Positions 1,223 through 60,273 of a stretch of DNA of 64,000 nucleotides are shown here, in pieces (positions within the stretch are counted from its first letter, which is position 1; each line of letters begins with the position of its first letter). Made by a program: the position numbers and the translations under genes. The stretch comes from Candidatus Omnitrophota bacterium. Lineage in GTDB: Bacteria; Omnitrophota; Gorgyraeia; Gygaellales; Profunditerraquicolaceae. The DNA lies in assembly GCA_029571225.1 (NCBI GenBank), contig JAKPTF010000009.1, positions 26,925 to 90,924 of the forward strand, written 5' to 3'. The notes beneath the pieces were generated by a model. The model did no database searches, was not told where the DNA came from, and saw nothing but the letters and a program-made list of their open reading frames with translations.

Positions 1223-2740
1223 TTATACCACTTTCCGCGATTTTTCAGTAGCAGAAAATTCCATATACCTGCCGAGCATCAGCCGCGTCTGAGCGTCAAG
1301 CGCGGGCGTGGACCCCAGAAGCAAGATGACTGCAGGGACGATAACCCATTCAGCCGCCATGGCCAGGTTCTTGACCCACGGGACGTCCCTGGGCCGCGGA
1401 GGGAGAATGGTCCAGGACAGGACTATCCACACAATGCTGGCGTACATTGTGAAATTGAACAGGAGGCCGGTTATGCGCGGAAGATTATAGCCGATCGCTG
1501 ACTGTGCGAAGAACCTGCCGCCCAGGAACACGGGCAGAGGGCCGATGATCCCGATGACAAACGCCCATATCGCCCATGTCACATGGCTTTCAAGCAGCTG
1601 GAATGACCTGCGCATTTTCACCGGTAGCGGAATCTGCCTGTTTTTCGCCAACCCTCTGACCAAAAACGGGAAGTTCTCCACGCCCCAGGCCCAACGGCGT
1701 TTCTGCCTGTATTGCACCCAGATCGTCTTGAAAAAATTGCTGCTGTATGCCGCGTCCATTGAAACGGTCGTATAGAGCGGAACGACGCGGTAATCGCCGT
1801 TGAAATGCAAAAAGGCCTTCCAGTAAACCACCGAATCGTCGGAGATCATGTCAACGGGCCAGTAGCCGATATCCACTAGCGTTTTGAATGACATGCTGTG
1901 GCTGGAAAACGTGACGAATTTCTCAAGGCGCATGCTTTCAATCATCTGGCAGAACGAGGCGCTCGTTTCTATGATGCGGGCGAACGCCGGCGCGTACCAG
2001 ATATTGTTGTTATATACAGGCACCGGCTGGTAACTTGCCTGGTGCGGCCGTTCCACTGTCAGGAAATGATAGGTGAGGCAGCCGAAATATTCCCGATCAA
2101 CGCAGGTGTCCGCGTCAAAACACGACACAATGACGCGTTCCTGGGCTATGCCACGGGCCTCGAAATATTCCCTGGAACGCTTTGCAGCCCACGTGGCGTT
2201 GGCGCCTTTGATCCGCTTTTCCCCGGGCAGATTGTCCGGATGGAACGTGACCAGCAGGCTGCCAAACGCGTCTTTATACTCCCGTTCCAGGACCCGTGCC
2301 GTTTCGGCGGACGGCTGATGACGCCCCTCAAAAGCAAGAACCACGACCATTTTATCCTGCGGATAATGCGTCTGCCGCAACGCTTCGAGCGAGGGCCGCA
2401 GGATATCGAGCCCTTCTTTATAAACGGGGAAAATAATTAAATGGCGCAATTGCTCCCATCCCGGAATCTTCTGGCAGGAGCGAAGCCATGCCCGCCTGCG
2501 CTGTTTTGCCAGCCGGCGGTTTGCCAGCAGCAGAAGCGTGGTCAGATAGATCGTCCTGATGATCCAGTAAAAATCAAAAACAATGATCATGACCGCGCAG
2601 TAAACGGGCCTCCAGACGGCAAGGAGGACGAAAAAGCCGATGATGCTCCAGGAAATGGCTCCCGGCATTATCTCGAGGGAACGCAGGAGCCGCCGACTAT
2701 GGTTTCTTGCCATCTTTCTTATCTTCAGGCCGCCAGTCAA
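1223..2740 (-). CDS. membrane-embedded family 2 glycosyltransferase (processive beta-glycan synthase-like)
   Basis: 505 aa. TM helices at both ends flank a GT2 core with FDADTCVD (DxD), ISDDS and QYRQKRRWAWG (QxxRW). Start is uncertain (M1, M10 or M25); the ORF overlaps the upstream gene by 44 nt. Confidence 0.75.
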   Translation of the reverse strand: MTGGLKIRKMARNHSRRLLRSLEIMPGAISWSIIGFFVLLAVWRPVYCAVMIIVFDFYWIIRTIYLTTLLLLANRRLAKQRRRAWLRSCQKIPGWEQLRHLIIFPVYKEGLDILRPSLEALRQTHYPQDKMVVVLAFEGRHQPSAETARVLEREYKDAFGSLLVTFHPDNLPGEKRIKGANATWAAKRSREYFEARGIAQERVIVSCFDADTCVDREYFGCLTYHFLTVERPHQASYQPVPVYNNNIWYAPAFARIIETSASFCQMIESMRLEKFVTFSSHSMSFKTLVDIGYWPVDMISDDSVVYWKAFLHFNGDYRVVPLYTTVSMDAAYSSNFFKTIWVQYRQKRRWAWGVENFPFLVRGLAKNRQIPLPVKMRRSFQLLESHVTWAIWAFVIGIIGPLPVFLGGRFFAQSAIGYNLPRITGLLFNFTMYASIVWIVLSWTILPPRPRDVPWVKNLAMAAEWVIVPAVILLLGSTPALDAQTRLMLGRYMEFSATEKSRKVV

Positions 2741-6848: not shown

Positions 6849-7112
6849 ATGGCAAATCGTCGTGCTGCCGTAAAACGGATGCGCGTTGACGCAAAAAGGC
6901 ATTCTCGCAATCAGAAGATACGGCGCGAGCTTAAAAAGGCCGTAAAACAATACCTTGGTATGTTGGCCGAAAAGAATGCCGCTGAAGCAAAAAAACTTTT
7001 CCAGAAAGTATGTTCGCTTCTCGATAAGGCTGCGAAAAAACGCGTCATCCATTCGAACACGGCCAACCGCAACAAATCACGCCTCGCGAAACGCCTGCTT
7101 AAAACTGCATAA
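6849..7112 (+). CDS. rpsT: 30S ribosomal protein S20
   Basis: 87 aa. MANRRAAVKRMRVDAKRHSRNQKIRRELKKAVK. AGGAG Shine-Dalgarno 7 nt upstream. Confidence 0.95.
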   Translation: MANRRAAVKRMRVDAKRHSRNQKIRRELKKAVKQYLGMLAEKNAAEAKKLFQKVCSLLDKAAKKRVIHSNTANRNKSRLAKRLLKTA

Positions 7113-35045: not shown

Positions 35046-35438
35046 CTATGCGGAGTTCCCGATAAAATTTGCGATCTCTCCCCGGTCCTGCGTATCGACT
35101 TTCTTGAACACGATCCCCAGGCGGTATTCGTTGTTGGACAGGGCGTGATGGTACTTGACCTCTCCGATGATATCCATCGGGCCGTAAAAACTCACGTCTT
35201 CGCTGTCAACCTTAAACAGCGTGAACTTCATGGTCAAAAGCGAGCCTTCTGGGATGTCGTGGTTGGTGAGAATCGAAAGCCCCCCTTCGCTCAGGTCAAT
35301 CATGGTAGCCCTAATCTCCTGGTTTTCAATCTGCATGCGCGTCTTCGAGGTTTTATCGACGCGGAACACGATTGCAAGATTCACCCGGAGTCGCTTGAAC
35401 GCGCGCCGCTCCTGGCCAGGCCCCGCATTCATTGACAT
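35046..35438 (-). CDS. stand-alone PilZ domain protein
   Basis: 130 aa. RRAFKRLRV (RxxxR) and DLSEGGLSI (DxSxxG). Confidence 0.75.
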   Translation of the reverse strand: MSMNAGPGQERRAFKRLRVNLAIVFRVDKTSKTRMQIENQEIRATMIDLSEGGLSILTNHDIPEGSLLTMKFTLFKVDSEDVSFYGPMDIIGEVKYHHALSNNEYRLGIVFKKVDTQDRGEIANFIGNSA

Positions 35439-35453
35439 GTTCCCCTCCCTGCC

Positions 35454-50622: not shown

Positions 50623-52245
50623 TCAGGATTCGTACCGGATCGCGGCGGTGAACGTCACGCTTGTCTGCTTCAGTTCTGCGGGGAACGGGGGCAGCGGGGA
50701 AAGATCTTCGATGGACCTGACGGCATTCTCGTCAAGGAATGAGTTTCCGGAACCGGCGACGACCGTCACGCCGGATATCATGCCGTCGGAGAAAACCGTG
50801 AACTCGACGACAACCTCCTTGGATTCTCCCCTGCGCGTTCCCGTTATGAACTCCGGGAATTTTTTATGCGACTCGATCAGCCTGCCGATATCGTAATAAT
50901 ATTTCTGCACAGGGTCCTGCGGCGGCAGGGCATCCGTTTTTTTCGGGTCACGGTCGAGGCTCACCGCCATCTTCTGCAAACGGTCAAACGCGGAATCCTG
51001 CAGGATGCGCGGAGTGATAAGGATAATGACTTCCTTATTTTGGACGCTGGTTACCTTGTGTTGGAACAGTGCCGGGCCGATCAAGGGGATATGGCCGAGA
51101 ATGGGCCACTTGTTCGTCGATTCGCTTTTCTGCTCCTGAATGAGGCCGCCGATCGCGATCGTCTGGCCGTCGTCAACCCGCAGCGTGGTCAATGCGGTGC
51201 GCTTGGTAATGACGGGTAATCCTTCGGCGCTTTGAGCCGTCACTTCGCTGACTTCCGGAGCGATCTTGACCGTGATCTGTTTTTTATCGTCAAGGTACGG
51301 CGTAATCCGCAATATAACTCCGGACGAAATGGACTGCAGCGTGCTGTATCTGTTGCCCTGGGAGCCGACTTCGATGGTCGCGTATTCTTCTGTGCCTACG
51401 CTCAACTCCGCCTGTTTGCCCTCCAGCGTAGCCACACGGGGATTGGCCTTGACCTTGGCCTTGCCTCTGGCGACCATGGTATTGATACGCGCGATCACAT
51501 CATTGCTCAAGGTGCCTGATATGGTCGTCGTTTTAGCCGCCGACGTGCCGGAAACTTTCGAATATGTGGCTTCGTTCGCCGGCATATTAATATTAAAACC
51601 TGTCGAATACATGGGCCCCCACGCGATGCCCAGGGCGGTAGAGTCGATTTCGGAAATCTCAATAACAAGGGCCTCGATCATGACCTGCCGCGGCGGCCGA
51701 TCCAGCGTCGCCAGATCTTTTTTCAAGCGGGCGACTACTTCAGGCGCGGCAGTTATGGTAATGGTATTAATGTCCTCGTTGACATGGATGTAGGGCGAGT
51801 AAAATTCCGAGATAAGGCTTTGAAGCTCTTTTGCCTTTAAATAGCTGGGCTGAAAAAAGTCCGTGACCGAGAGCTTATTGAACGACGGGCTGTTGGGCGT
51901 GCACAGGCCAACCAGGTAATACCCTTCTGGCATCTCCCTGAAGGAATAGTTGCCCGACGAAAGCACCAGCCGCAGCGCATCTTCCAGCGGGACCCCCCAC
52001 AGTTCGATGGAAATGGAGCCCTGCACGGTTTCATCAGGGACTATCTTGACGCCGGTCTGAGCCGAGATATCCCTTAGCACTTCGCGGATATCGGTCTCAA
52101 AAAATGAGTTGTTGACCGTTGGCACCGGGCGCTTGAACTCATCCTCTTCCATGAGAAATGCGTCAAGCTCGCCGGCAAAAACAGGCGCGCGAAGGATCAG
52201 CAAAACACCGCATAAAGCAATAAGGTTAAGTTTTAGGGATTTCAA
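50623..52245 (-). CDS. secretin (GspD/PilQ superfamily) with C-terminal TonB_C domain
   Basis: 540 aa. Signal peptide, N0-like and N1-like domains, and a secretin core (ANPRVATLEGKQAELSVG...PILGHIPLIGPALF...VIILITPRIL). The C-terminus KEVVVEFTVFSDGMISGVTVVAGSGNSFLDENAVRSIEDLSPLPPFP fits the TonB_C pattern. Confidence 0.8.
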   Translation of the reverse strand: MKSLKLNLIALCGVLLILRAPVFAGELDAFLMEEDEFKRPVPTVNNSFFETDIREVLRDISAQTGVKIVPDETVQGSISIELWGVPLEDALRLVLSSGNYSFREMPEGYYLVGLCTPNSPSFNKLSVTDFFQPSYLKAKELQSLISEFYSPYIHVNEDINTITITAAPEVVARLKKDLATLDRPPRQVMIEALVIEISEIDSTALGIAWGPMYSTGFNINMPANEATYSKVSGTSAAKTTTISGTLSNDVIARINTMVARGKAKVKANPRVATLEGKQAELSVGTEEYATIEVGSQGNRYSTLQSISSGVILRITPYLDDKKQITVKIAPEVSEVTAQSAEGLPVITKRTALTTLRVDDGQTIAIGGLIQEQKSESTNKWPILGHIPLIGPALFQHKVTSVQNKEVIILITPRILQDSAFDRLQKMAVSLDRDPKKTDALPPQDPVQKYYYDIGRLIESHKKFPEFITGTRRGESKEVVVEFTVFSDGMISGVTVVAGSGNSFLDENAVRSIEDLSPLPPFPAELKQTSVTFTAAIRYES

Positions 52246-53461
52246 TGTTTATTCCTACCTGAACGGGGTCCAGGGACTCGACAGCTCCGTCCCCGGACAC
52301 GCATGTCGGCACCATGATTATCGAGATCTGCAACGTCTCTTCCGGGGCATCCGACGGAACTGTCGCGGTCAGCACTATCTTGGATTCTGCGCCGCTGGGG
52401 ATTTGTATCTGCTCCGGCGCAAGAGAAAACCATTCTTTAATCGGATTCCCCCGGTCGAATGCCGCGGTTATTCTAACCTCCGCAGCGCTCTGGTTCCGCA
52501 CGGCAAAGGCCGCAGTGCGAAAACCTCCGCGCGGAATCTTAAGATTCAACGATGCGGGCACCGCCTCTATCGCCGCAACGCTGACAGCCGGCTTTTCGGG
52601 CAACGCAGACTGCGATTTCGAGCTAGTCACTATGAAGGGCATTTCGGTTTCAAGCGTTGCCATGCCTCCGTACCGGAACGTTGCGCGGGCGATATACTCG
52701 CCTGCGGGAAGGGCACGGTCATATAAGGCGATGAATTCGCGAGTGTGGCCGGGCAAGACCGTACCGGTACCGACGTTGAAATCGACCTCTCCTTTTCTCC
52801 TGCGGTCCGGTGTAAGAATGACCAGTTTTCCGGTCGCGGCGATATGGATATTGCCGAGATTATGGATCGAAGCCAGGAAGGTCAGGCCTCTGGGCACGGA
52901 TTCCATGTCCTCAAAGAGCGTTTGCAAAAAAAAATCGTCTATGCGGGCAGTTCTCTCGATTCTGCCGCCGGTCACCGTGGCCTTGACGAGGGATGCGATG
53001 CGCCACCGGATATTCCCGCCCGGCTGATGCGGCGCATCCTCAGCGCTCAATTCGCAGGCGACCGCGCTGTAGTATCCACCGGCAGTTGCCTGCGCCGGTA
53101 TTGTGATCTTGCCGATGATTTTTTTCGTCTGCCCCGGTTCGACGACGACGGTCTTCGGCTCGACAGAGATCCATTTACTGCAGGAATAAGGGGTCGTTGC
53201 AGGATCGCGGAACTCGGTCGTGCCGTCCCTGGTCATATCCACATCAACGGGACTGATCGTGAAGCTCAGCGAACGCTCACGATTCTCGTTGATCAGTTCG
53301 AACCAAAACAACTTGGTCCCGCCGCGGCTGAGGCTTATCTCAGACACCGGCGGGCTGATCTTGAAATTCACCTGGGCATAACACGGCAAATCACAGAACG
53401 GGAAAAGAAAGATGCCTGCGGCTGCAAGAATCTTCAGCCTGATAATGATCTTAACTCGCAT
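52226..53461 (-). CDS. secreted multi-beta-sandwich protein (PapD/DUF916-like pattern), candidate assembly factor
   Basis: 411 aa. Signal peptide ending CYAQ. Repeated Ig-like segments (FKISPPVSEISLSRGGTKLFWFELINEN, SVEPKTVVVEPGQTKKIIGKITIP, LNLKIPRGGFRTAAFAVRNQS, IQIPSGAESKIVLTATVP). 20-nt overlap with the secretin gene. Confidence 0.5.
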   Translation of the reverse strand: MRVKIIIRLKILAAAGIFLFPFCDLPCYAQVNFKISPPVSEISLSRGGTKLFWFELINENRERSLSFTISPVDVDMTRDGTTEFRDPATTPYSCSKWISVEPKTVVVEPGQTKKIIGKITIPAQATAGGYYSAVACELSAEDAPHQPGGNIRWRIASLVKATVTGGRIERTARIDDFFLQTLFEDMESVPRGLTFLASIHNLGNIHIAATGKLVILTPDRRRKGEVDFNVGTGTVLPGHTREFIALYDRALPAGEYIARATFRYGGMATLETEMPFIVTSSKSQSALPEKPAVSVAAIEAVPASLNLKIPRGGFRTAAFAVRNQSAAEVRITAAFDRGNPIKEWFSLAPEQIQIPSGAESKIVLTATVPSDAPEETLQISIIMVPTCVSGDGAVESLDPVQVGINIEIPKT

Positions 53462-53567: not shown

Positions 53568-54160
53568 TTACAGCTGTTCGGAAAATGTCACGGTGAACTG
53601 ATCGGCGTAGTCGCCGGTCGGCAGCTGGTCGTCAACAACAATCTTGTTCCACAATGTGCTAATCGTTCTTGATGCAAGTTTGTGGCTGCCGTTAAAATCA
53701 GCCGCCCTTTTATATTGCGGCTCAAGGGCGATCGGACATACCTGGCTTAAAGCGTTTGCGTCATACACGGCAGTCTTCCAGTCAGCGGCTATGCCGTAGT
53801 AGGTATTGATTTTTTCCCGCCTCCGCTCGCAAGATCGGCTGCGCCGGCGACGCTCATGATCACATCATGGCCGTTCTGACTGCCGACATAAATGTTGATG
53901 CAGGGATGCTTATACGTCCCGGCGCTGGTGACTTTCCAGTCGATTTTTGTAGCCGACAACTTGACCGATACCGTTGACAACACCTTTGCGGAAACGCTTA
54001 TCGTCTGAGCTTTGCCCATCGCGGGTTCCGCAGGGTCTGATGTCGTGCATGTGGCGCCCGGTCCAGGAACCGGCAGGACCTTCATTTCCAGCGCGTACGC
54101 ACACGCAGCCGTACCCGCGGCAATAAAAGCCGTTGCGATAATCATAATTGCCCTGTTCAT
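53568..54160 (-). CDS. secreted fimbrial-subunit-like protein (SCPU/DUF4402-like C-terminus), interrupted by a frameshift at an A6 run
   Basis: ORF 53789..54160 has GAGGAGG SD and signal peptide AACAYA. It stops shortly after GGGKK. The frame shifted by one base continues INTYYGIAADWKT...LPTGDYADQFTVTFSEQL to 53568. One extra A in the run at 53810..53815 would fuse them into ~196 aa. Confidence 0.6.
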
Positions 54161-54282
54161 TTCTTACCTCCTCTGATATTGACCCCCTATTCCCTTCTTC
54201 GGCAGCCGCGTTATCTGCGCGGCATTGCATTTTCGACCCCGAAAACGCCCTTTCGGAAGGATGTTCCATCTATGTGCATGGG

Positions 54283-54334
54283 TAAAACAAAACCCGGTTT
54301 GCCGTAAGTCATTCCTTAATTTCGGCAACCCGGG
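54283..54334 (-). terminator. terminator-like hairpin inside the subunit-gene leader (possible attenuator or riboswitch expression platform)
   Basis: Minus strand has CCCGGGTTGCCG-N18-CGGCAAACCGGG (11 of 12 bp) followed by TTTTGTTTT. It lies ~120 nt upstream of the ATG and ~125 nt downstream of the predicted TSS. Confidence 0.5.
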
Positions 54335-54461
54335 TATTCTTGCTCGATAATCCCGACCCCGCGGCTTTCCCGCCGTTAAAACGGCAAGCTTTTCGCTTTA
54401 AGGAAGCTATCATCCACCTGGGGGTTGGATTTTCGCTGCGAATCAACCTGATTGTACTTAT

Positions 54462-54490
54462 ATTTTAACTGATGAATATGTGTTTTTCAA
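54462..54490 (-). promoter_or_regulatory. sigma70-like promoter of the subunit/secretin cassette
   Basis: Minus strand reads TTGAAA, 17 nt, TAAAAT. Confidence 0.6.
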
Positions 54491-54559
54491 GTCCGGGAGG
54501 GAGCATTTCTGAAAACGGTTTCATTGCGCGATACAAAAACGGGGAAAGGGCTGCGGGGG

Positions 54560-54807: not shown

Positions 54808-57639
54808 TTAAAACGCCTGGTTGATGCCGAGCCAGTAATGGGCCTTTTGCTTCGGGTCATTGAGCGGGTGTGCCGCGTCAATCCTGACCACGACACGTTC
54901 AAGGATGCCGCAGATGTTGAAATGGAACCGCAATCCGACGCCGGCGTTTTTCCTGAAATCCGCGTCATTATAAGACGAAAACCACGCTCTGCCCGCATCA
55001 AAAAACCCGACGCCCTGGATCGCGTTCAGACAAAGGATATTGTCGATCAGATACAACCGCATGTCCCTGATCAGTGGAAGGCGGTATTCGACGCCGGCAA
55101 GAACACAGCGGCTGCCCCGCACGTCAGTGCGGCCGTAACCTCGCAGGCTGTCGGCTCCGCCGAGCTCAAAAAGCCCCTTGTCAGAATGTTCTCCCCATCC
55201 GGCCTTTAGCCGCGCTGCGATCTTATGCTGGTGGCGCTCTGACACAGAGAAATATCTCTGCAATTCCATGCTCGTGCGCCAGAACGCCTGGTCCCCGCCA
55301 AGAATATGCCCGGCAAGCTCCTGGGTGGGTATCAAGCGCCAGCCAAAACCTGGGTCCCCGTAGGGACCGTACCTGCCCAGGGATCCGGTTATGCCGAAAA
55401 CAGCTTCGTTCTTTCTGCGATAGCACAAATTGCGCATATCTTCGCGGCCGTTCAAACCATCAACGGAATCGAGGCGCCTGTCCCTCAGGAAATACAGGGT
55501 CGCATGGTCATTGACGTCGAACATGCCGTAATTTGCCGGCCACAATTCGCGCCGCCAATATACCCTGCCCCCTGCCACGTCGTTTTTCTCCCTGCTGGAA
55601 TCATAGTTGAAGACTTCGAATCCCAGCGCGTTCTGCCTGCCCGCAACGCCGTTTACCTGGTACCCCAGGCGAGAATCAAAGGCCTTGCCGTTGAAATCAT
55701 ACATGGAACTCGCCCGCACGATACTGTCGTACGGCTTCTGGACTGAGGATGATATACCGAGCGAAGAGCCGCCGGCAGAAGGGCCTGCAGCGGCATTGTA
55801 CGAATCACGGCCGTAAAAAAACGGCATTTCATACGCAAAGAAGTAAAGCGGCGCAAGCCGCAGCGAAGTGCGGCGCGGCCAGTGGTTATTGGTCCGGTCC
55901 CGGTCGAGCGGAATGGCTTCATCGGGATCTATATCAACGCGGCAGGCGTCCCTGTTCGGATCCGTGGCAATCACGTGGCAGTCTCCTTGCCCGTCCCATG
56001 TGTCGCGTTGCCGCGTGCCGTCCCGGTACGACACGACGGTTTCGACCGGCATGCGCAACGCCCCCCTGTTCTCGATCGTGACAGATCCCGCGGATACGGA
56101 TCTTACCGCGAAATCGCACTGTTTGCCTGTCAAAAGCCACTGATCGAAGAATGCGTTCAGGTCAGAGCCCGATTCTTCGCCGAAGACCCGGCGCAGATCC
56201 CGCACGCTGAAATTCCTGAAGGCAAATTCTCTCGTATACCGGGCAACGGCATGGTCGAACACGTCCCTGCCGACCTGCGCCTCAAGCATGATCAGAACCG
56301 CAGCGCCCTTGCCGTAAGCCAGGGAAAAGATCGATGAAGGTTCGCGGAAACTCGACAGTTCGCCCAGGACCGGCCTGTCATATCCCGCTTTGGCCAGATA
56401 CGAATACCGGGACAGGGTAACGTTACGGAAAGAAAAGTTCGGGACAAGCCAGGCAAGCCACGGCGGAAGGTCCATGACATATGCGTTATACCCGTAACGG
56501 TCCTCGAGGTACCGGAGGATCCAGTAGGAATTCATCGCCTCGTCCAGGAACATCTCCTTGTATTCATCCGATCCGACGATGTTGTAGAACCATTGATGTC
56601 CGGTCTCATGCGACACCAGAAAATCGAAATACCTCGACAGGAACCCCGGCAGCCGGTAGAGCCTCGTATCTATAAACACGAGGCCCGACGACTGGTCTCC
56701 GCCGAAACCTAGATACGCCGGAACGATCGAGAATTCCTTATACGGATACGGCCCGAATCTCGCGGAGTAGAAACGCATCAACGCGGCTGCGTTTTCTGCG
56801 GCTTCCCGCGCAGCGGCACGGTTGCCGTGAATATAATAGGATCTGATGGTGTATCCGTCTTGCTCGAGAGAAACGGACGCGAAATCAGGAGAAATCCCCA
56901 CTCCCAGGTCACGCAAGGGGATCTCGCAACGGAAGGCCACGGTCCTGGTGCCGTCGGCATTTAGCGAGGACTCCCCCGCTACGCCGCCGCTGACGACCTG
57001 ATGGTTTTGCGGCACTGTCATGGCCAGGGAGTAATACGCGGCATCGCTGAAAAACGGCTGATGGTAAACGTAGAACGGGTATTTATGCCAGCCGGCATCG
57101 TCAAGGACGCACAGGATCGGATACCAGCGTGTCAGGGTGATGACGTTCCGGTGCCAGCCGAACCTGCCGTACGAATGAGGTATGACGACCGAATATGACA
57201 TTTCGATCGTGACGGATCCGCCGGGTTCGAGCGATGAGGGAAGGGTGACGTTAAGGATCGTTTCGTCCGCGCCCTCTATAATATAGGAAAGCCGCGCGCC
57301 ACCGCAACGGATATCCCTGATGCTCAGGTCCCCTGATTGAAAGCCCGCGGGAAACGGATCGACCTTGAAATACCCAGCATACCTGCTCATCATGCGAGCC
57401 TCGGCTCTGGTATAACGCCGGTGCGGATAGATATGAAAATACAGGTTCTCGACGGGTTTTGAAGAATTATTTGTGAACGTAACCGATTGTGTTGCCTCAA
57501 GCGAACGCCGGGCCGGGTCAAGCGCGGCTTTGATGTCGTAGCGCGGCGGCTGGGCAAAAGCGCCGCATGAGTAGCACAAAATTACGCCAACAGAACACAC
57601 CCAGATTGACAGGATTTCAGGGACGCGGCTATTTTTCAT
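54808..57639 (-). CDS. M1-family zinc metallopeptidase fused to Omp85/surface-antigen-type beta-barrel
   Basis: 943 aa. Signal peptide. HETGHQWFYNIVGSDEYKEMFLDEAMNSYW (HExxH-x18-E). The C-terminal ~330 aa has alternating beta-strand sequence (GGADSLRGYG, GVGFFDAGRAW, AGVGLRFHF) ending in ...WLGINQAF. Confidence 0.8.
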   Translation of the reverse strand: MKNSRVPEILSIWVCSVGVILCYSCGAFAQPPRYDIKAALDPARRSLEATQSVTFTNNSSKPVENLYFHIYPHRRYTRAEARMMSRYAGYFKVDPFPAGFQSGDLSIRDIRCGGARLSYIIEGADETILNVTLPSSLEPGGSVTIEMSYSVVIPHSYGRFGWHRNVITLTRWYPILCVLDDAGWHKYPFYVYHQPFFSDAAYYSLAMTVPQNHQVVSGGVAGESSLNADGTRTVAFRCEIPLRDLGVGISPDFASVSLEQDGYTIRSYYIHGNRAAAREAAENAAALMRFYSARFGPYPYKEFSIVPAYLGFGGDQSSGLVFIDTRLYRLPGFLSRYFDFLVSHETGHQWFYNIVGSDEYKEMFLDEAMNSYWILRYLEDRYGYNAYVMDLPPWLAWLVPNFSFRNVTLSRYSYLAKAGYDRPVLGELSSFREPSSIFSLAYGKGAAVLIMLEAQVGRDVFDHAVARYTREFAFRNFSVRDLRRVFGEESGSDLNAFFDQWLLTGKQCDFAVRSVSAGSVTIENRGALRMPVETVVSYRDGTRQRDTWDGQGDCHVIATDPNRDACRVDIDPDEAIPLDRDRTNNHWPRRTSLRLAPLYFFAYEMPFFYGRDSYNAAAGPSAGGSSLGISSSVQKPYDSIVRASSMYDFNGKAFDSRLGYQVNGVAGRQNALGFEVFNYDSSREKNDVAGGRVYWRRELWPANYGMFDVNDHATLYFLRDRRLDSVDGLNGREDMRNLCYRRKNEAVFGITGSLGRYGPYGDPGFGWRLIPTQELAGHILGGDQAFWRTSMELQRYFSVSERHQHKIAARLKAGWGEHSDKGLFELGGADSLRGYGRTDVRGSRCVLAGVEYRLPLIRDMRLYLIDNILCLNAIQGVGFFDAGRAWFSSYNDADFRKNAGVGLRFHFNICGILERVVVRIDAAHPLNDPKQKAHYWLGINQAF

Positions 57640-58273
57640 ATTTAAGAGGGCACGATCCGCATCGCGGCTTTGTCTTCAGGCAGTATTCCTTGCCCAGGCG
57701 GACGATGAGCGCATGGAACTCGTTGAACACGCCGGAGCCACCGGCGAGATTGCGCATGCAATACGCCTGTATGTCGCCGTAGGACGCGTCTGCCGGAACC
57801 AGACCATGGCGCGAAAAAATGCGCCTTGTGTACGCGTCAACCACAAAAACAGGCTTATTGAACGCGTATAATAGGATAGAATCTGCGGTTTCCGGGCCGA
57901 TGCCGTTCACGGACAAAAGCTGCTGCCGGAGCGCCGCAAGCGGAGCCCTGCGCATCCGCGCAAGGCTGCCCCCGTATGAGCTGTGCAGGACATCAAGAAA
58001 ATTCTTAAGCCGTTTTGTCTTTAATCGGTAATACCCCGACGGTCTGATCAAACGGGCCACCGCGCTGTTATTCATGCGGCGCAGCTTCCCGGCTGACAGG
58101 GCGCTTGCCCGCTTCAGGTTCTCGACCGCCCTGGCGACGTTTTGCCAGTTCGTATTCTGCGTCAGGATGGCACCGACGATGATCTCGAAAGCCGAATCGC
58201 CCGGCCACCAGTGCTGCGGGCCGAAATGTTCCAAGAGGATCCCATATACTCTCTGCAACCTATGCCGTTTCAC
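57629..58273 (-). CDS. endonuclease III-related HhH-GPD family protein
   Basis: 214 aa. ILTQNTNW, HhH VNGIGPETADSILLYAF (Glu where Nth has the catalytic Lys), VVDAYTRRI. C-terminus CLKTKPRCGSCPL has only three Cys before the stop. Confidence 0.8.
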   Translation of the reverse strand: MKRHRLQRVYGILLEHFGPQHWWPGDSAFEIIVGAILTQNTNWQNVARAVENLKRASALSAGKLRRMNNSAVARLIRPSGYYRLKTKRLKNFLDVLHSSYGGSLARMRRAPLAALRQQLLSVNGIGPETADSILLYAFNKPVFVVDAYTRRIFSRHGLVPADASYGDIQAYCMRNLAGGSGVFNEFHALIVRLGKEYCLKTKPRCGSCPLKYEK

Positions 58274-60273
58274 CGGCCGTCCCCCGGATCGAGAGGATTA
58301 TAATTATAGTAGGCGAATATCGTGTACGCGGTGCCTGCGACGGAACCAGTGGTCATACCGTTGGGCGTCACCCATCCGTGGCCTGTGTCGACCGATTCGG
58401 CACTGGCATACGGCAGGCACCCTTCCCCCTGCCCCGTCGGCGACGGGCTTGATATAATCATGGTGCATAACGATGCAAGATACTCGTCAGCGGTCCTCTC
58501 GTATGCAAGAGCCTTTGTCTCGACGTTTTGGCTGCGGTAATAATCGGCCATGATGCGGTATGAGATGATCATCTGTGCGGTCCATTCCGTGGATATGACT
58601 CCGCCCCGCGCCATGTGCCGGGCTGGCGCGAAATCAAATCCCCTGACGAGCGACTTCTTTCCGTCCGCGGCCGTGTATTCGACCTCAACGGCGCAATTCT
58701 CCTGGGCGAATTCCAGGATCTTGTCCGGGTTCATGCCCAGCTCAATCAGTTTTTTCGGGCCGAGCGCGGCAATGGACCATGCGTAGGTATCGGTCGCGAT
58801 CGTTGAATCACCCTTGCCGCGTTTGATGGGAATCTCCGGCCTGTCGTAACTGTGTGCCGAGAGCCACCGGAGCACTTTATCGCGGCTTGCGAGGTAGGAT
58901 TCGTTATTAGTTGCGGCATAAAGCATGTTGAAGAACGCGTAGGCGTCTAGGTTATGCTCGGTGGAATACCATGAGACCGACGGGCCGCCGACGATCCCGC
59001 CCTCCCCGTCCTGGGCCTGAAGCCTCATGATGTTCCGCGCTATATCCTCTGCAAGCGGCATGAAACGCTTATCCTGGGTTTTCTGCGAATACCGCACTGC
59101 CGCAATCCCGAGCCAGATATTCGGTCCGCTGTGGACGATATATTCGACCGGAGAACCGTCATTGACGTAGTATGCGTTGACAAACAGGCCGCTGGTGCGT
59201 TTGGCGCGCCGGCTGAAGAAATCGAGAACCTTCGCAGCCCGTTCAAAATCAGAGAAGTTTACGTATGTCTGCACCACGAGCGCCTGGTCGTACATGAACG
59301 CCATGTCCTTCAGGGCGCGGTCGCCCTCATACGACATAACAAGGCCGGTGCGCGGATTTTGATGCACAACGAGCCACCGGTACATTTTGTCAAAATTGGC
59401 CTTCTCGAGGTAGGCCTTCTTCCGGTCAAGCCGCAGCAATTCCTGCGTAACCGTATTCTCCTTCTCCTGCAGGACAATCAGCCTGTCCTGGAAACCAGTC
59501 TTGTCTTTTGTAAGCCGGGCTATCATGTCGTTAAGTTTCCGGATCCTTTCCTCCGCCTTTGCAAGCTCGCCCTGCGCCTGCTCTTCCATGGTCGCCTTTT
59601 CCTTCTCTGCCGCCTCAGCTGCCAGCTCCTGGGTCCTGCGCTCTTCTTCAAGAGCCTGAATCCTGACCTGAAGCGTCTGCAATGAACGCTGCGCGTCTTC
59701 CTTATCCCTGCTGATTTCCTTGATCTTTTGTTTTGCGCTCGTAGATTCGCGCAGGATCTCCACTAGCTGCGAGACGAGGGCCTTATTCCCCTGTATCAGC
59801 CTGTAATTAAGATACGTATCGAAGCCGAGTGCCACGGCGAACACGCAAGCCAGGGCCAGGGCCGATGGCAGGGCGATTTTTTTGATAAACGCATATTTGA
59901 CGAGCCTTGACCGATGCGTGCTATCGATCTGCACATATGACAGGCCTATTCCGAATTTGCCCGACTCCCCTGTTTTCTCCTGCATCCATGCGACGGTTGC
60001 ATGGGCAGCAACGGCAGGCCGGTTGAGCGGCATTTCGATCTTAAGCTCGATCCTGGCCTGCTGCGTCCTGACCAGCAGCAGCAGATCGGAGCTCAACTCG
60101 TGCACATGCAGCAGTATGCCGCCTTTGCCGATATTGGAGGTATATCCCTGGAGCCATTCGGAAAGAGGGGCGGATCCGTCAAAAGAATAAAGCCTGAACT
60201 GCACGGGGAATACCGAGTCCAGTCTGATATAGCGCCTGCGTTCTTCACGGAAATCAGGCTGGTGTGACATCAT
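58270..60273 (-). CDS. PilZ - TM - coiled coil - alpha-helical toroid-like domain protein
   Basis: 667 aa. N-terminal PilZ (ERRRYIRLD, SNIGKGGILL), TM LPSALALACVFAVALGF, ~130 aa coiled coil, and a ~370-aa helix-repeat C-terminus with Trp/Tyr-rich loops resembling six-hairpin glycosidase folds. Confidence 0.6.
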   Translation of the reverse strand: MMSHQPDFREERRRYIRLDSVFPVQFRLYSFDGSAPLSEWLQGYTSNIGKGGILLHVHELSSDLLLLVRTQQARIELKIEMPLNRPAVAAHATVAWMQEKTGESGKFGIGLSYVQIDSTHRSRLVKYAFIKKIALPSALALACVFAVALGFDTYLNYRLIQGNKALVSQLVEILRESTSAKQKIKEISRDKEDAQRSLQTLQVRIQALEEERRTQELAAEAAEKEKATMEEQAQGELAKAEERIRKLNDMIARLTKDKTGFQDRLIVLQEKENTVTQELLRLDRKKAYLEKANFDKMYRWLVVHQNPRTGLVMSYEGDRALKDMAFMYDQALVVQTYVNFSDFERAAKVLDFFSRRAKRTSGLFVNAYYVNDGSPVEYIVHSGPNIWLGIAAVRYSQKTQDKRFMPLAEDIARNIMRLQAQDGEGGIVGGPSVSWYSTEHNLDAYAFFNMLYAATNNESYLASRDKVLRWLSAHSYDRPEIPIKRGKGDSTIATDTYAWSIAALGPKKLIELGMNPDKILEFAQENCAVEVEYTAADGKKSLVRGFDFAPARHMARGGVISTEWTAQMIISYRIMADYYRSQNVETKALAYERTADEYLASLCTMIISSPSPTGQGEGCLPYASAESVDTGHGWVTPNGMTTGSVAGTAYTIFAYYNYNPLDPGDGR

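Follow-up and report, generated by a model that had tools for sequence, protein, structure and literature searches.

Features of the leader

A stretch of 64,000 nt from a Candidatus Omnitrophota contig (JAKPTF010000009.1 of assembly GCA_029571225.1; the whole stretch is called the window below) was analyzed for the leader of an operon that encodes a putative surface fibre. On the minus strand, a gene for an FmdB-type zinc-ribbon protein and the open reading frame (ORF) of the secreted fibre subunit are separated by an intergenic region of 399 nt, and the leader of the fibre-subunit operon has a length of about 295 nt. The following features were located in this region, in the order of transcription and all on the minus strand:

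54506–54522, near-palindromic box GAAACCGTTTTCAGAAA, which precedes the −35 element by 13 nt
54462–54490, promoter of the sigma-70 type, TTGAAA-17-TAAAAT, which agrees with the consensus at 10 of 12 positions in a promoter scan
54412–54430, 5′ hairpin AUCCA-ACCCCCAGG-UGGAU, which has a C-rich loop and immediately precedes aptamer 1
54312–54405, aptamer 1, of the GEMM-I type
54284–54334, intrinsic terminator, composed of a hairpin (54334–54293) and a U-tract (54292–54284)
54191–54262, aptamer 2, of a minimal GEMM-I type
54180–54187, GGGGGUCA motif with the third copy of GGGGUC, between aptamer 2 and the ribosome-binding site
54167–54173, Shine-Dalgarno (SD) motif GAGGAGG, 6 nt before the ATG at 54160

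Several of these elements had already been described in the initial annotation of the stretch. The promoter about 300 nt upstream of the ATG was found again at 54490–54462, and the 11/12-bp hairpin followed by UUUUGUUUU in the middle of the leader lies at 54334–54284 on the minus strand. Two further hairpins, CGUUUUCG-GGGU-CGAAAAUG and GCCGCG-N7-CGCGGC, are present and are formed in the minimum-energy fold; they had been treated as separate stems, but are instead the P1a and P1b helices of a second complete aptamer. The hexamer GGGGUC occurs three times within 175 nt (54360, 54240 and 54186), as had been noticed. The leader as a whole had been regarded as a riboswitch or as an attenuator controlled by a protein or a small RNA, of a class that could not be matched. 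The riboswitch part of this proposal is in agreement with our results, and the leader can be assigned to the GEMM-I class of the c-di-GMP-I clan (c-di-GMP, cyclic di-GMP). Comparison with related leaders points to two diverged riboswitches of c-di-GMP class I (GEMM-I) that follow one another, each of them proposed to have a separate expression platform, and we assign a probability of roughly 0.78 to this reading.

Assignment to the GEMM-I class

At the Rfam gathering thresholds (35 bits for RF01051, c-di-GMP-I, and 59 bits for RF03167, c-di-GMP-I-GGC) only two tRNAs were detected in the whole window. A permissive cmscan run, which had been suggested as a check, yielded a match to RF03167 at 54320–54405 with 17.6 bits and an E value of 0.47. 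The alignment returned by cmscan was shifted by one element, with the inner CG of helix P1 taken as the base of P1a, and it was rejected by comparison with the related loci L004 and L007.

Homologous operons were gathered because the 17.6-bit match alone could have occurred by chance. The second gene of the operon encodes a 411-aa protein, which has only 16 relatives among 5.8 billion clusters. The loci L001–L024 are the contigs that carry these relatives together with the results of alignment-guided scans, and some of them stem from metagenome-assembled genomes (MAGs) of Omnitrophota and "Planctomycetia". Scanning genome contigs with the single 411-aa protein returned nothing, alignment-based scans for it yielded only 6 metagenome and 3 genome loci, and a homologue search with the fibre subunit gave two matches only. 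Wherever the upstream DNA suffices, a match to the GEMM-I clan was found directly upstream of the orthologous subunit gene. The Rfam scores were as follows:

L004: RF03167, 70.8 bits (threshold 59)
L011 (5′ end cut): RF03167, 40.5 bits (threshold 59)
L007: RF03167, 33.8 bits (threshold 59)
L002: RF03167, 28.4 bits (threshold 59)
L001: RF03167, 18.8 bits (threshold 59)
L021: RF03167, 14.6 bits (threshold 59)
L013: RF01051, 41.5 bits (threshold 35)
L015: RF01051, 27.5 bits (threshold 35)
L021: RF01051, 24.3 bits (threshold 35)

The orthologous leaders of L004 and L013 thus exceed the respective Rfam threshold. When the leaders were compared side by side, two aptamers were found in the window, L001, L021, and L015, only an aptamer of the first type in L004, L007, and L011, and only one of the second type in L002 and L013. 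The RF01051 matches in L013, L015, and L021 fall on the orthologous copies of aptamer 2. A further locus from an Omnitrophota MAG, L019, begins upstream of the subunit gene (positions 1–60) with ...AGCCGGGGCUUCC...CCCGGCUUUUUUU, which resembles the last part of a type-1 aptamer with the terminator behind it, truncated by the contig end.

A model (R2) was then built from five relatives only (L004, L007, L015, L002, and L013), and the whole window was searched with it with filters off. The top match in the 64 kb was aptamer 1 (38.3 bits, E value 2.6e-10), and the second was aptamer 2 (21.0 bits, E value 3e-4). The Rfam matches in the orthologous leaders and the results with model R2 are thus both in agreement with the proposed riboswitch-type leader with alternative terminator and antiterminator structures.

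Conservation of the aptamer fold

The two aptamers share the arrangement of three helices around a junction. In aptamer 1, P1 is formed by UUCCUUAA..CG and CG..UUAAGGAA, J1 is AAAAG (ending with G20), P1a is CUUGCCGU-UUUA-ACGGCGGG, the linker is AA (A47, A48), P1b consists of AGCC-G-CGG paired with CCGGGUU, and J3 is GC (C92). In aptamer 2, P1 is formed by UCCUUC-CG and CG-AA-GAAGGG, J1 is AAAGG (G20), P1a is GCGUUUUCG-GGGU-CGAAAAUGC, the linker is AA(U), P1b is GCCGCG-CAGAUAA-CGCGGC, and J3 is again GC (C92). For the isolated aptamer 2 segment, the three-helix junction is the minimum-energy fold.

The fold was analyzed with a structural alignment of 11 aptamers, fitted by hand and padded with N. 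This alignment was used because the variable loops misalign in MAFFT plus RNAalifold, which recovered only P1a from the unpadded sets, and additionally P1b for type 1. In the padded alignment 98.4% of the cells were paired, compared with 70.9% in shuffles, and controls with slid partners reached 30–47% pairing. Comparison of the homologous leaders, the second check that had been suggested, showed that the helices are retained although 18 of the 24 base pairs have changed on both sides.

J1 ends with G20, the linker contains A47 and A48, and J3 is GC with C92 in all 11 complete aptamers. The linker to P1b does not vary either. The only departure concerns the inner CG/CG pair of P1, which is CG/CA in L004 and unchanged in the other 10 aptamers. 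G20, A47, and C92 are the c-di-GMP contacts in the Vc2 riboswitch (PMC5888326, PMC4744006). Attenuation by a leader peptide was also considered and dropped; the leader contains only short ORFs with TTG starts, and conservation is seen for the helices and not for any coding frame.

Competition between aptamer 1 and the terminator

The arms of the terminator, CCCGGGUUGCCG (54334–54323) and CGGCAAACCGGG (54304–54293), are paired at 11 of 12 positions and are directly followed by the U-tract (54292–54284). The hairpin has a predicted energy of −21.4 kcal/mol (z = −3.7), and none of 200 shuffles folded as well. It had been skipped by the terminator scan only since its loop exceeds the 8-nt limit of the scan. 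The 5′ arm is made up of sequences of aptamer 1, namely the P1b 3′ strand together with J3 and the inner pair of P1, so that CCGGGUUGCCG is the strand common to the 3′ end of the aptamer and the terminator, and the 3′ strand of the outer part of P1 is located in the terminator loop. Aptamer 1 and the terminator thus share one strand, and only one of the two structures can exist at a time.

The initial annotation had proposed that a separate upstream segment acts as antiterminator, using CGGGAUU...AAUACCCG as the alternative pairing. This pairing indeed overlaps the 5′ arm of the terminator, but it is not a conserved competitor. The conserved competitor is the base of aptamer 1 P1b (AGCC-G-CGG with CCGGGUU), and the role of antiterminator thus falls to the P1b/P1 3′ strand of the aptamer itself.

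The same design was found in all seven type-1 aptamers, namely the six of the structural alignments and a 3′ fragment in L015. In each case a hairpin of −17 to −24 kcal/mol with a U-run follows, to which the aptamer contributes its 3′ strand as the 5′ arm; outside of the window, this applies to L001, L021, L007, L004, L011, and L015. Competition of aptamer and terminator has been described for 78 of 322 GEMM RNAs (Weinberg 2007, PMC1950547). None of 100 shuffles folds as well as the complete leader (z = −3.3), and in the unconstrained fold of this leader the terminator prevails. The default state would therefore be OFF, and the ligand should turn transcription ON. We thus infer that aptamer 1 would operate as a transcriptional ON switch in vivo.

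Aptamer 2 and the ribosome-binding site

Aptamer 2 ends about 20 nt upstream of the SD motif, and no terminator follows it. In the unconstrained folds of five relatives (L001, L021, L015, L002, and L013), the SD motif is paired with pyrimidine-rich strands of the aptamer, i.e., with CCUUCC of the P1 5′ strand or, in L013, with UCCUCC of P1a. When P1 was enforced in these relatives, the predicted accessibility of the SD motif increased from 0.19–0.52 to 0.59–0.92. These models make translational ON control by aptamer 2 a reasonable proposal for the family, and a weak one for the copy in the window. In other words, a terminator follows aptamer 1, and sequestration of the SD motif as the second platform is predicted in the five relatives, but not in the window.

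The third copy of GGGGUC lies in the same region. The motif GGGUCAG is found 9–17 nt before the SD motif in the same five relatives, and the window contains the variant GGGUCAA. In L007 and L011, repeats of GGGGUAGG or GGGGCAGG were observed instead. The other two copies of GGGGUC in the leader are situated in P1b of aptamer 1 and in the P1a loop of aptamer 2, and the window as a whole contains 25 copies on both strands. The GGGGUC/GGGUCAG motif could be a standby site, a protein-binding site, or an alternative pairing partner. Pairing partners for GGGGUCAG were looked for, but the core CUGCC and the ACCCC of the 5′ hairpin are both invariant and gave no covariation support. A 7-bp pairing of GUAGCUG with CAGUUAC was found only in L021 and L015. 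The 5′ hairpin is identical in the window, L001, and L021, and its C-rich loop is complementary to the downstream GGGGU motifs. An additional motif, AUAGA(U/C)GG (window 54266–54273, minus strand), recurs in the leaders of L001, L002, L004, L007, L011, and L013, where it is placed before aptamer 2 or after the last aptamer.

The regulated operon

The genes around the leader are, in the order of transcription and all on the minus strand:

57639–54808, fusion of an M1 peptidase with Omp85
54787–54560, FmdB-type zinc-ribbon protein, adjoining the leader upstream
53568–54160, secreted fibre subunit of about 195 aa with a signal peptide and the C-terminus ...GDYADQFTVTFSEQL, the first regulated gene
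52226–53461, secreted protein of 411 aa with three Ig-like domains (Pfam fn3_5 and WxLIP_PGBD), the second regulated gene
50623–52245, secretin fused to a TonB C-terminal domain (Pfam Secretin 3e-41, TonB_C 6e-10), the third regulated gene

The gene order around the secretin-TonB_C gene is conserved in the homologous loci. In the subunit family, an FTVTFS motif is invariant at the end, and one member has a weak match to SCPU (E value 0.0038). The AlphaFold 2 model of the 411-aa protein (mean predicted local distance difference test score, pLDDT, 82.5) contains three Ig-like domains, and its compact structural matches in the PDB were WxLIP (9i1y) and CfaA, the chaperone of the CFA/I pilus (6k73_B and 4y2o_A), with template modelling scores of about 0.5. 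Sequence searches of the PDB with subunit and 411-aa profiles gave no match. Judged from the model, the 411-aa protein is thus predicted to be a protein resembling PapD-type chaperones and WxLIP. The regulated genes appear to encode a fibre-assembly system in which the secretin-TonB_C protein takes the place of an usher, and this combination of an SCPU-like subunit, a three-Ig-domain protein, and secretin-TonB_C appears to be hitherto undescribed.

The ORF of the subunit is interrupted in this assembly. It reaches a stop after 123 codons, and the reading continues in another frame to 53568. Comparison with L001, which is 86% related, revealed a 1-nt deletion in an A-run at 53815–53810 on the minus strand (GGGA-AAAAATC in the window and GGGAGAAAGATC in L001). 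Intact orthologues have 165–225 aa, and the public annotation of the MAG carries the truncated 123-aa ORF as a hypothetical protein. The frameshift could be a homopolymer error of the assembly, a real pseudogene, or a case of slippage.

PilZ domains are c-di-GMP receptors. Two PilZ-domain proteins, both above the Pfam threshold, are encoded on the minus strand of the window (58270–60273 and 35049–35453), and therefore the organism very probably uses c-di-GMP. In the first of them, a 667-aa coiled-coil protein encoded 4 kb upstream of the riboswitch, the PilZ domain is at the N-terminus, whereas the second is a stand-alone PilZ protein of 135 aa. The M1-peptidase/Omp85 protein (54808–57639, minus strand; 943 aa, Peptidase_M1 with a C-terminal Omp85) has an unusual domain combination, and a Peptidase_M1-Omp85 protein adjoins the operon also in L001, L002, and the P0003 contig.

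Promoter and upstream box

The promoter is conserved together with the leader. A −35 element with CTTGA and a TA-rich −10 element (TAnnnT) are present with the same spacing in the window, L001, L021, L002, L004, and L007. The near-palindromic box upstream of it, which can also be given as GAAAnCGTTTTC (window 54522–54506), occurs a single time in the 64-kb window. Its consensus GAAAnCGTTTkC is nearly invariant and is found at a fixed distance to the −35 element in six leaders; in L002 it is a perfect palindrome, GAAAACGTTTTC. From this pattern, a transcription factor probably binds at the box, and a protein would then act as an additional level of control.

Promoter, aptamer, and terminator accompany the subunit gene also where the upstream genes differ, as in L004 and L007. 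The initial annotation had named one scenario that would have removed the basis for an attenuator, namely that the hairpin is simply the terminator of the upstream FmdB operon. This is unlikely because the three elements travel with the subunit gene into other contexts. In L004, a match to a PyrR-binding site was observed (1814–1917, minus strand; 38.2 bits, below the threshold of 54). It lies upstream of a gene pair for a phosphoribosyltransferase and aspartate carbamoyltransferase, which is oriented divergently to the riboswitch locus, and is probably a genuine pyr attenuator.

Points against the assignment and alternative explanations

Several results weigh against tandem GEMM-I riboswitches in the window. 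Aptamer 1 stays below the Rfam gathering threshold, with 17.6 compared with 59 bits, and aptamer 2 was not reported by cmscan even at E ≤ 10 when 121 nt (54165–54285) were scanned. The third match of model R2, with 17.3 bits, lies inside the coding sequence of rpsT (ribosomal protein S20), so that noise comes near the 21 bits of aptamer 2; this match (6883–6979), which is also the third match of model R1, was rejected as noise. By the R2 score alone, aptamer 2 would be only modestly above noise. Its case also rests on its position, on its homology to the copies in L021 and L015, and on compensatory changes, such as U-A to C-G and G-C to A-U in P1a. The covariation counts were obtained from a hand-fitted alignment of related or paralogous sequences, and the figures lean towards structure. 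The SD motif of the window is predicted to be open either way (0.82 before and 0.81 after P1 was enforced), and the subunit gene behind the leader carries a frameshift in this assembly.

The aptamers of the window also depart from the canonical architecture. In both, P1a is a continuous helix, closed by UUUA in aptamer 1 and by GGGU in aptamer 2, in which the 3-nt internal loop with C44 is missing. A GNRA tetraloop with its receptor and the bulged AG of P1b, which contains G83, are likewise absent. No bulged C was found on the 3′ side of P1a that could form C44:G83, and the bases before the P1b 3′ strand are AC instead of AG in aptamer 1 and absent in aptamer 2. The interhelical Watson-Crick pair C44:G83 has been called universally conserved (PMC4744006). 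In addition, aptamer 2 has the linker AAU, whereas the GEMM-I linker is described as virtually always AAA. The aptamers of L001, L021, L015, and partly of L007 likewise lack the internal loop of P1a, the GNRA tetraloop, and G83, and L004, L011, and L013 keep the canonical features including the C44:G83 pair. Because near-universal GEMM-I features are absent from the window aptamers, their affinity or even their ligand could differ.

The alternative that survives best, which we nevertheless consider to be rather unlikely, is that only aptamer 1 works and that aptamer 2 has no platform of its own here, being a structural or stabilizing element of the 5′-UTR or a decaying duplicate. The open SD motif of the window with or without P1, the lack of a terminator after aptamer 2, the U-U mismatch at the base of its P1b together with the AAU linker, and the result that no consistent anti-aptamer pairing was found across the relatives would all fit such an aptamer. 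However, an aptamer of this type is the sole one in L002 and L013, where one copy exceeds the Rfam threshold and sequestration of the SD motif is predicted, and the helices of aptamer 2 covary around an intact junction in the window, L001, L021, and L015.

A further-reaching proposal would be that the aptamers of the window, L001, L021, and L015 represent a stripped-down GEMM-I sub-architecture under selection, with new tertiary contacts or another nucleotide signal, which serves as a two-step transcription-then-translation gate for an undescribed fibre system of Omnitrophota. It is improbable.

Still less probable is a minimized GEMM-I derivative that either recognizes a ligand other than c-di-GMP, such as a different cyclic dinucleotide or a related nucleotide, or has a changed tertiary architecture. 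In it, the lost tetraloop-receptor and C44:G83 contacts would be replaced by new ones, in which, e.g., the GGGU loop, the GGGGU motifs, and the C-rich 5′ hairpin loop take part. Such a derivative would explain why the helices covary in the window, L001, L021, and L015 although the canonical features are missing, why the P1a loop GGGU of aptamer 2 is constant while the stem changes, and why the loop sequence ACCCC is complementary to the GGGGU motifs; variants of the fold with altered specificity are known, e.g., for c-AMP-GMP (PMC7266159). However, the canonical bases G, A, and C occupy the contact positions of all 11 aptamers, whereas the known c-AMP-GMP switch is altered at position 20, and the proposed replacement contacts are invariant and have no covariation support. 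Furthermore, orthologous genes are preceded at the same position by canonical forms in some loci and by minimal forms in others, which points to a common function.

A plain terminator of the peptidase/FmdB operon, or an attenuator controlled by a protein or small RNA with the aptamers as relics or coincidences, is very improbable: the sub-threshold Rfam scores, the frameshifted subunit gene, the repeated GGGGUC as possible protein-binding sites, and the lack of a terminator-like site from the FmdB stop codon up to the promoter, owing to which read-through from upstream would also end at the hairpin, could be taken in its favour, but the promoter-aptamer-terminator unit is kept under different upstream genes, compensatory changes, also between the window, L021, and L015, maintain all helices, L001 and L021 have the same minimal aptamers in front of intact subunit genes, and the frameshift is a single-base homopolymer difference as is typical of assembly errors.

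Proposed mechanism and implications

We hypothesize that the tandem GEMM-I riboswitches operate as follows. Transcription would start at the conserved promoter (54490–54462), and without ligand the terminator would form and transcription would end near 54284. Binding of c-di-GMP at the G20/A47/C92 junction would let P1 and P1b hold CCGGGUUGCCG, so that no terminator could form and read-through would result. On the read-through RNA, P1 of aptamer 2, stabilized by the ligand, would free the SD motif, probably as a translational control. The anatomy, the homology to GEMM-I, the covariation, and the incompatibility of aptamer 1 with the terminator are features of the sequences themselves, and we infer from them c-di-GMP as the putative ligand, the ON polarity in vivo, and translational control by aptamer 2. 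With two consecutive ON switches that respond to one ligand, the induction of the subunit, the chaperone-like protein, and the secretin should become steeper and more switch-like. In summary, the tandem GEMM-I leader probably switches on a pilus-like fibre/secretin operon at high c-di-GMP, and induction of surface fibres under this condition fits the usual role of the messenger.

To our knowledge, Omnitrophota is a phylum without a genetic system. The assignment of c-di-GMP as the signal of an uncharacterized three-gene surface-fibre operon, which was encountered in only a handful of uncultured Omnitrophota and Planctomycetia-like genomes, offers a testable handle on the function of the operon as well as on c-di-GMP signalling in Omnitrophota. 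The results further show that minimized GEMM-I aptamers that lack the tetraloop-receptor and C44:G83 contacts are missed at the Rfam thresholds, which is useful for riboswitch annotation, and these aptamers bear on the question of which tertiary contacts the GEMM-I fold truly needs.

Comparison with known systems

The aptamers resemble c-di-GMP-I (RF01051, Vibrio cholerae Vc2) in the P1/P1a/P1b junction, in J1 ending with G, in the AA(A) linker, in GC-CG after P1b, and in the strings AAAGCC and GG(C/U)UGCCGAA. A terminator that competes with the P1b 3′ strand and the link to surface and motility genes are also shared. In contrast to RF01051, P1b of aptamer 2 has 6 bp, and both copies of the window score below the Rfam threshold. 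For the type-1 aptamers c-di-GMP-I-GGC (RF03167) is the best-scoring Rfam model. However, judged from the printed Rfam consensus lines, from which the defining base of the GGC variant was taken, RF03167 has G at position 47 (ACGC-G-AAGCC) and RF01051 has A (ACGC-A-AAGCC). All aptamers analyzed here have A47 and thus a canonical pocket, and the GGC variant was ruled out. The c-AMP-GMP riboswitch (GEMM-Ib, Geobacter) has the same fold and also controls genes for pili and extracellular structures. Its changed base at position 20 is A. As the pocket of this riboswitch is changed at position 20 (PMC9481103) and all 11 aptamers have G there, this class was ruled out as well.

A literature search found no report that ties Omnitrophota to riboswitches. 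Tandem arrangements of c-di-GMP-I are the most frequent same-class tandems, with 347 doublets and 12 triplets, a triplet of Bacillus thuringiensis has been validated, and same-class tandem aptamers with separate platforms are expected to sharpen the response (PMC9481103). The leader in the window agrees with these cases in having two aptamers of the same class in one 5′-UTR. It differs in that the first platform is a terminator while the second appears to be translational, in that the aptamers belong to two distinct sub-types either of which occurs alone in relatives, and in that it stems from an Omnitrophota MAG and precedes an uncharacterized operon. Taken together, the riboswitch class, the competition with a terminator, and the tandem logic are all already known, and the modest novelty is a diverged, minimized pair of aptamers that Rfam misses, found in a candidate phylum upstream of an uncharacterized operon.

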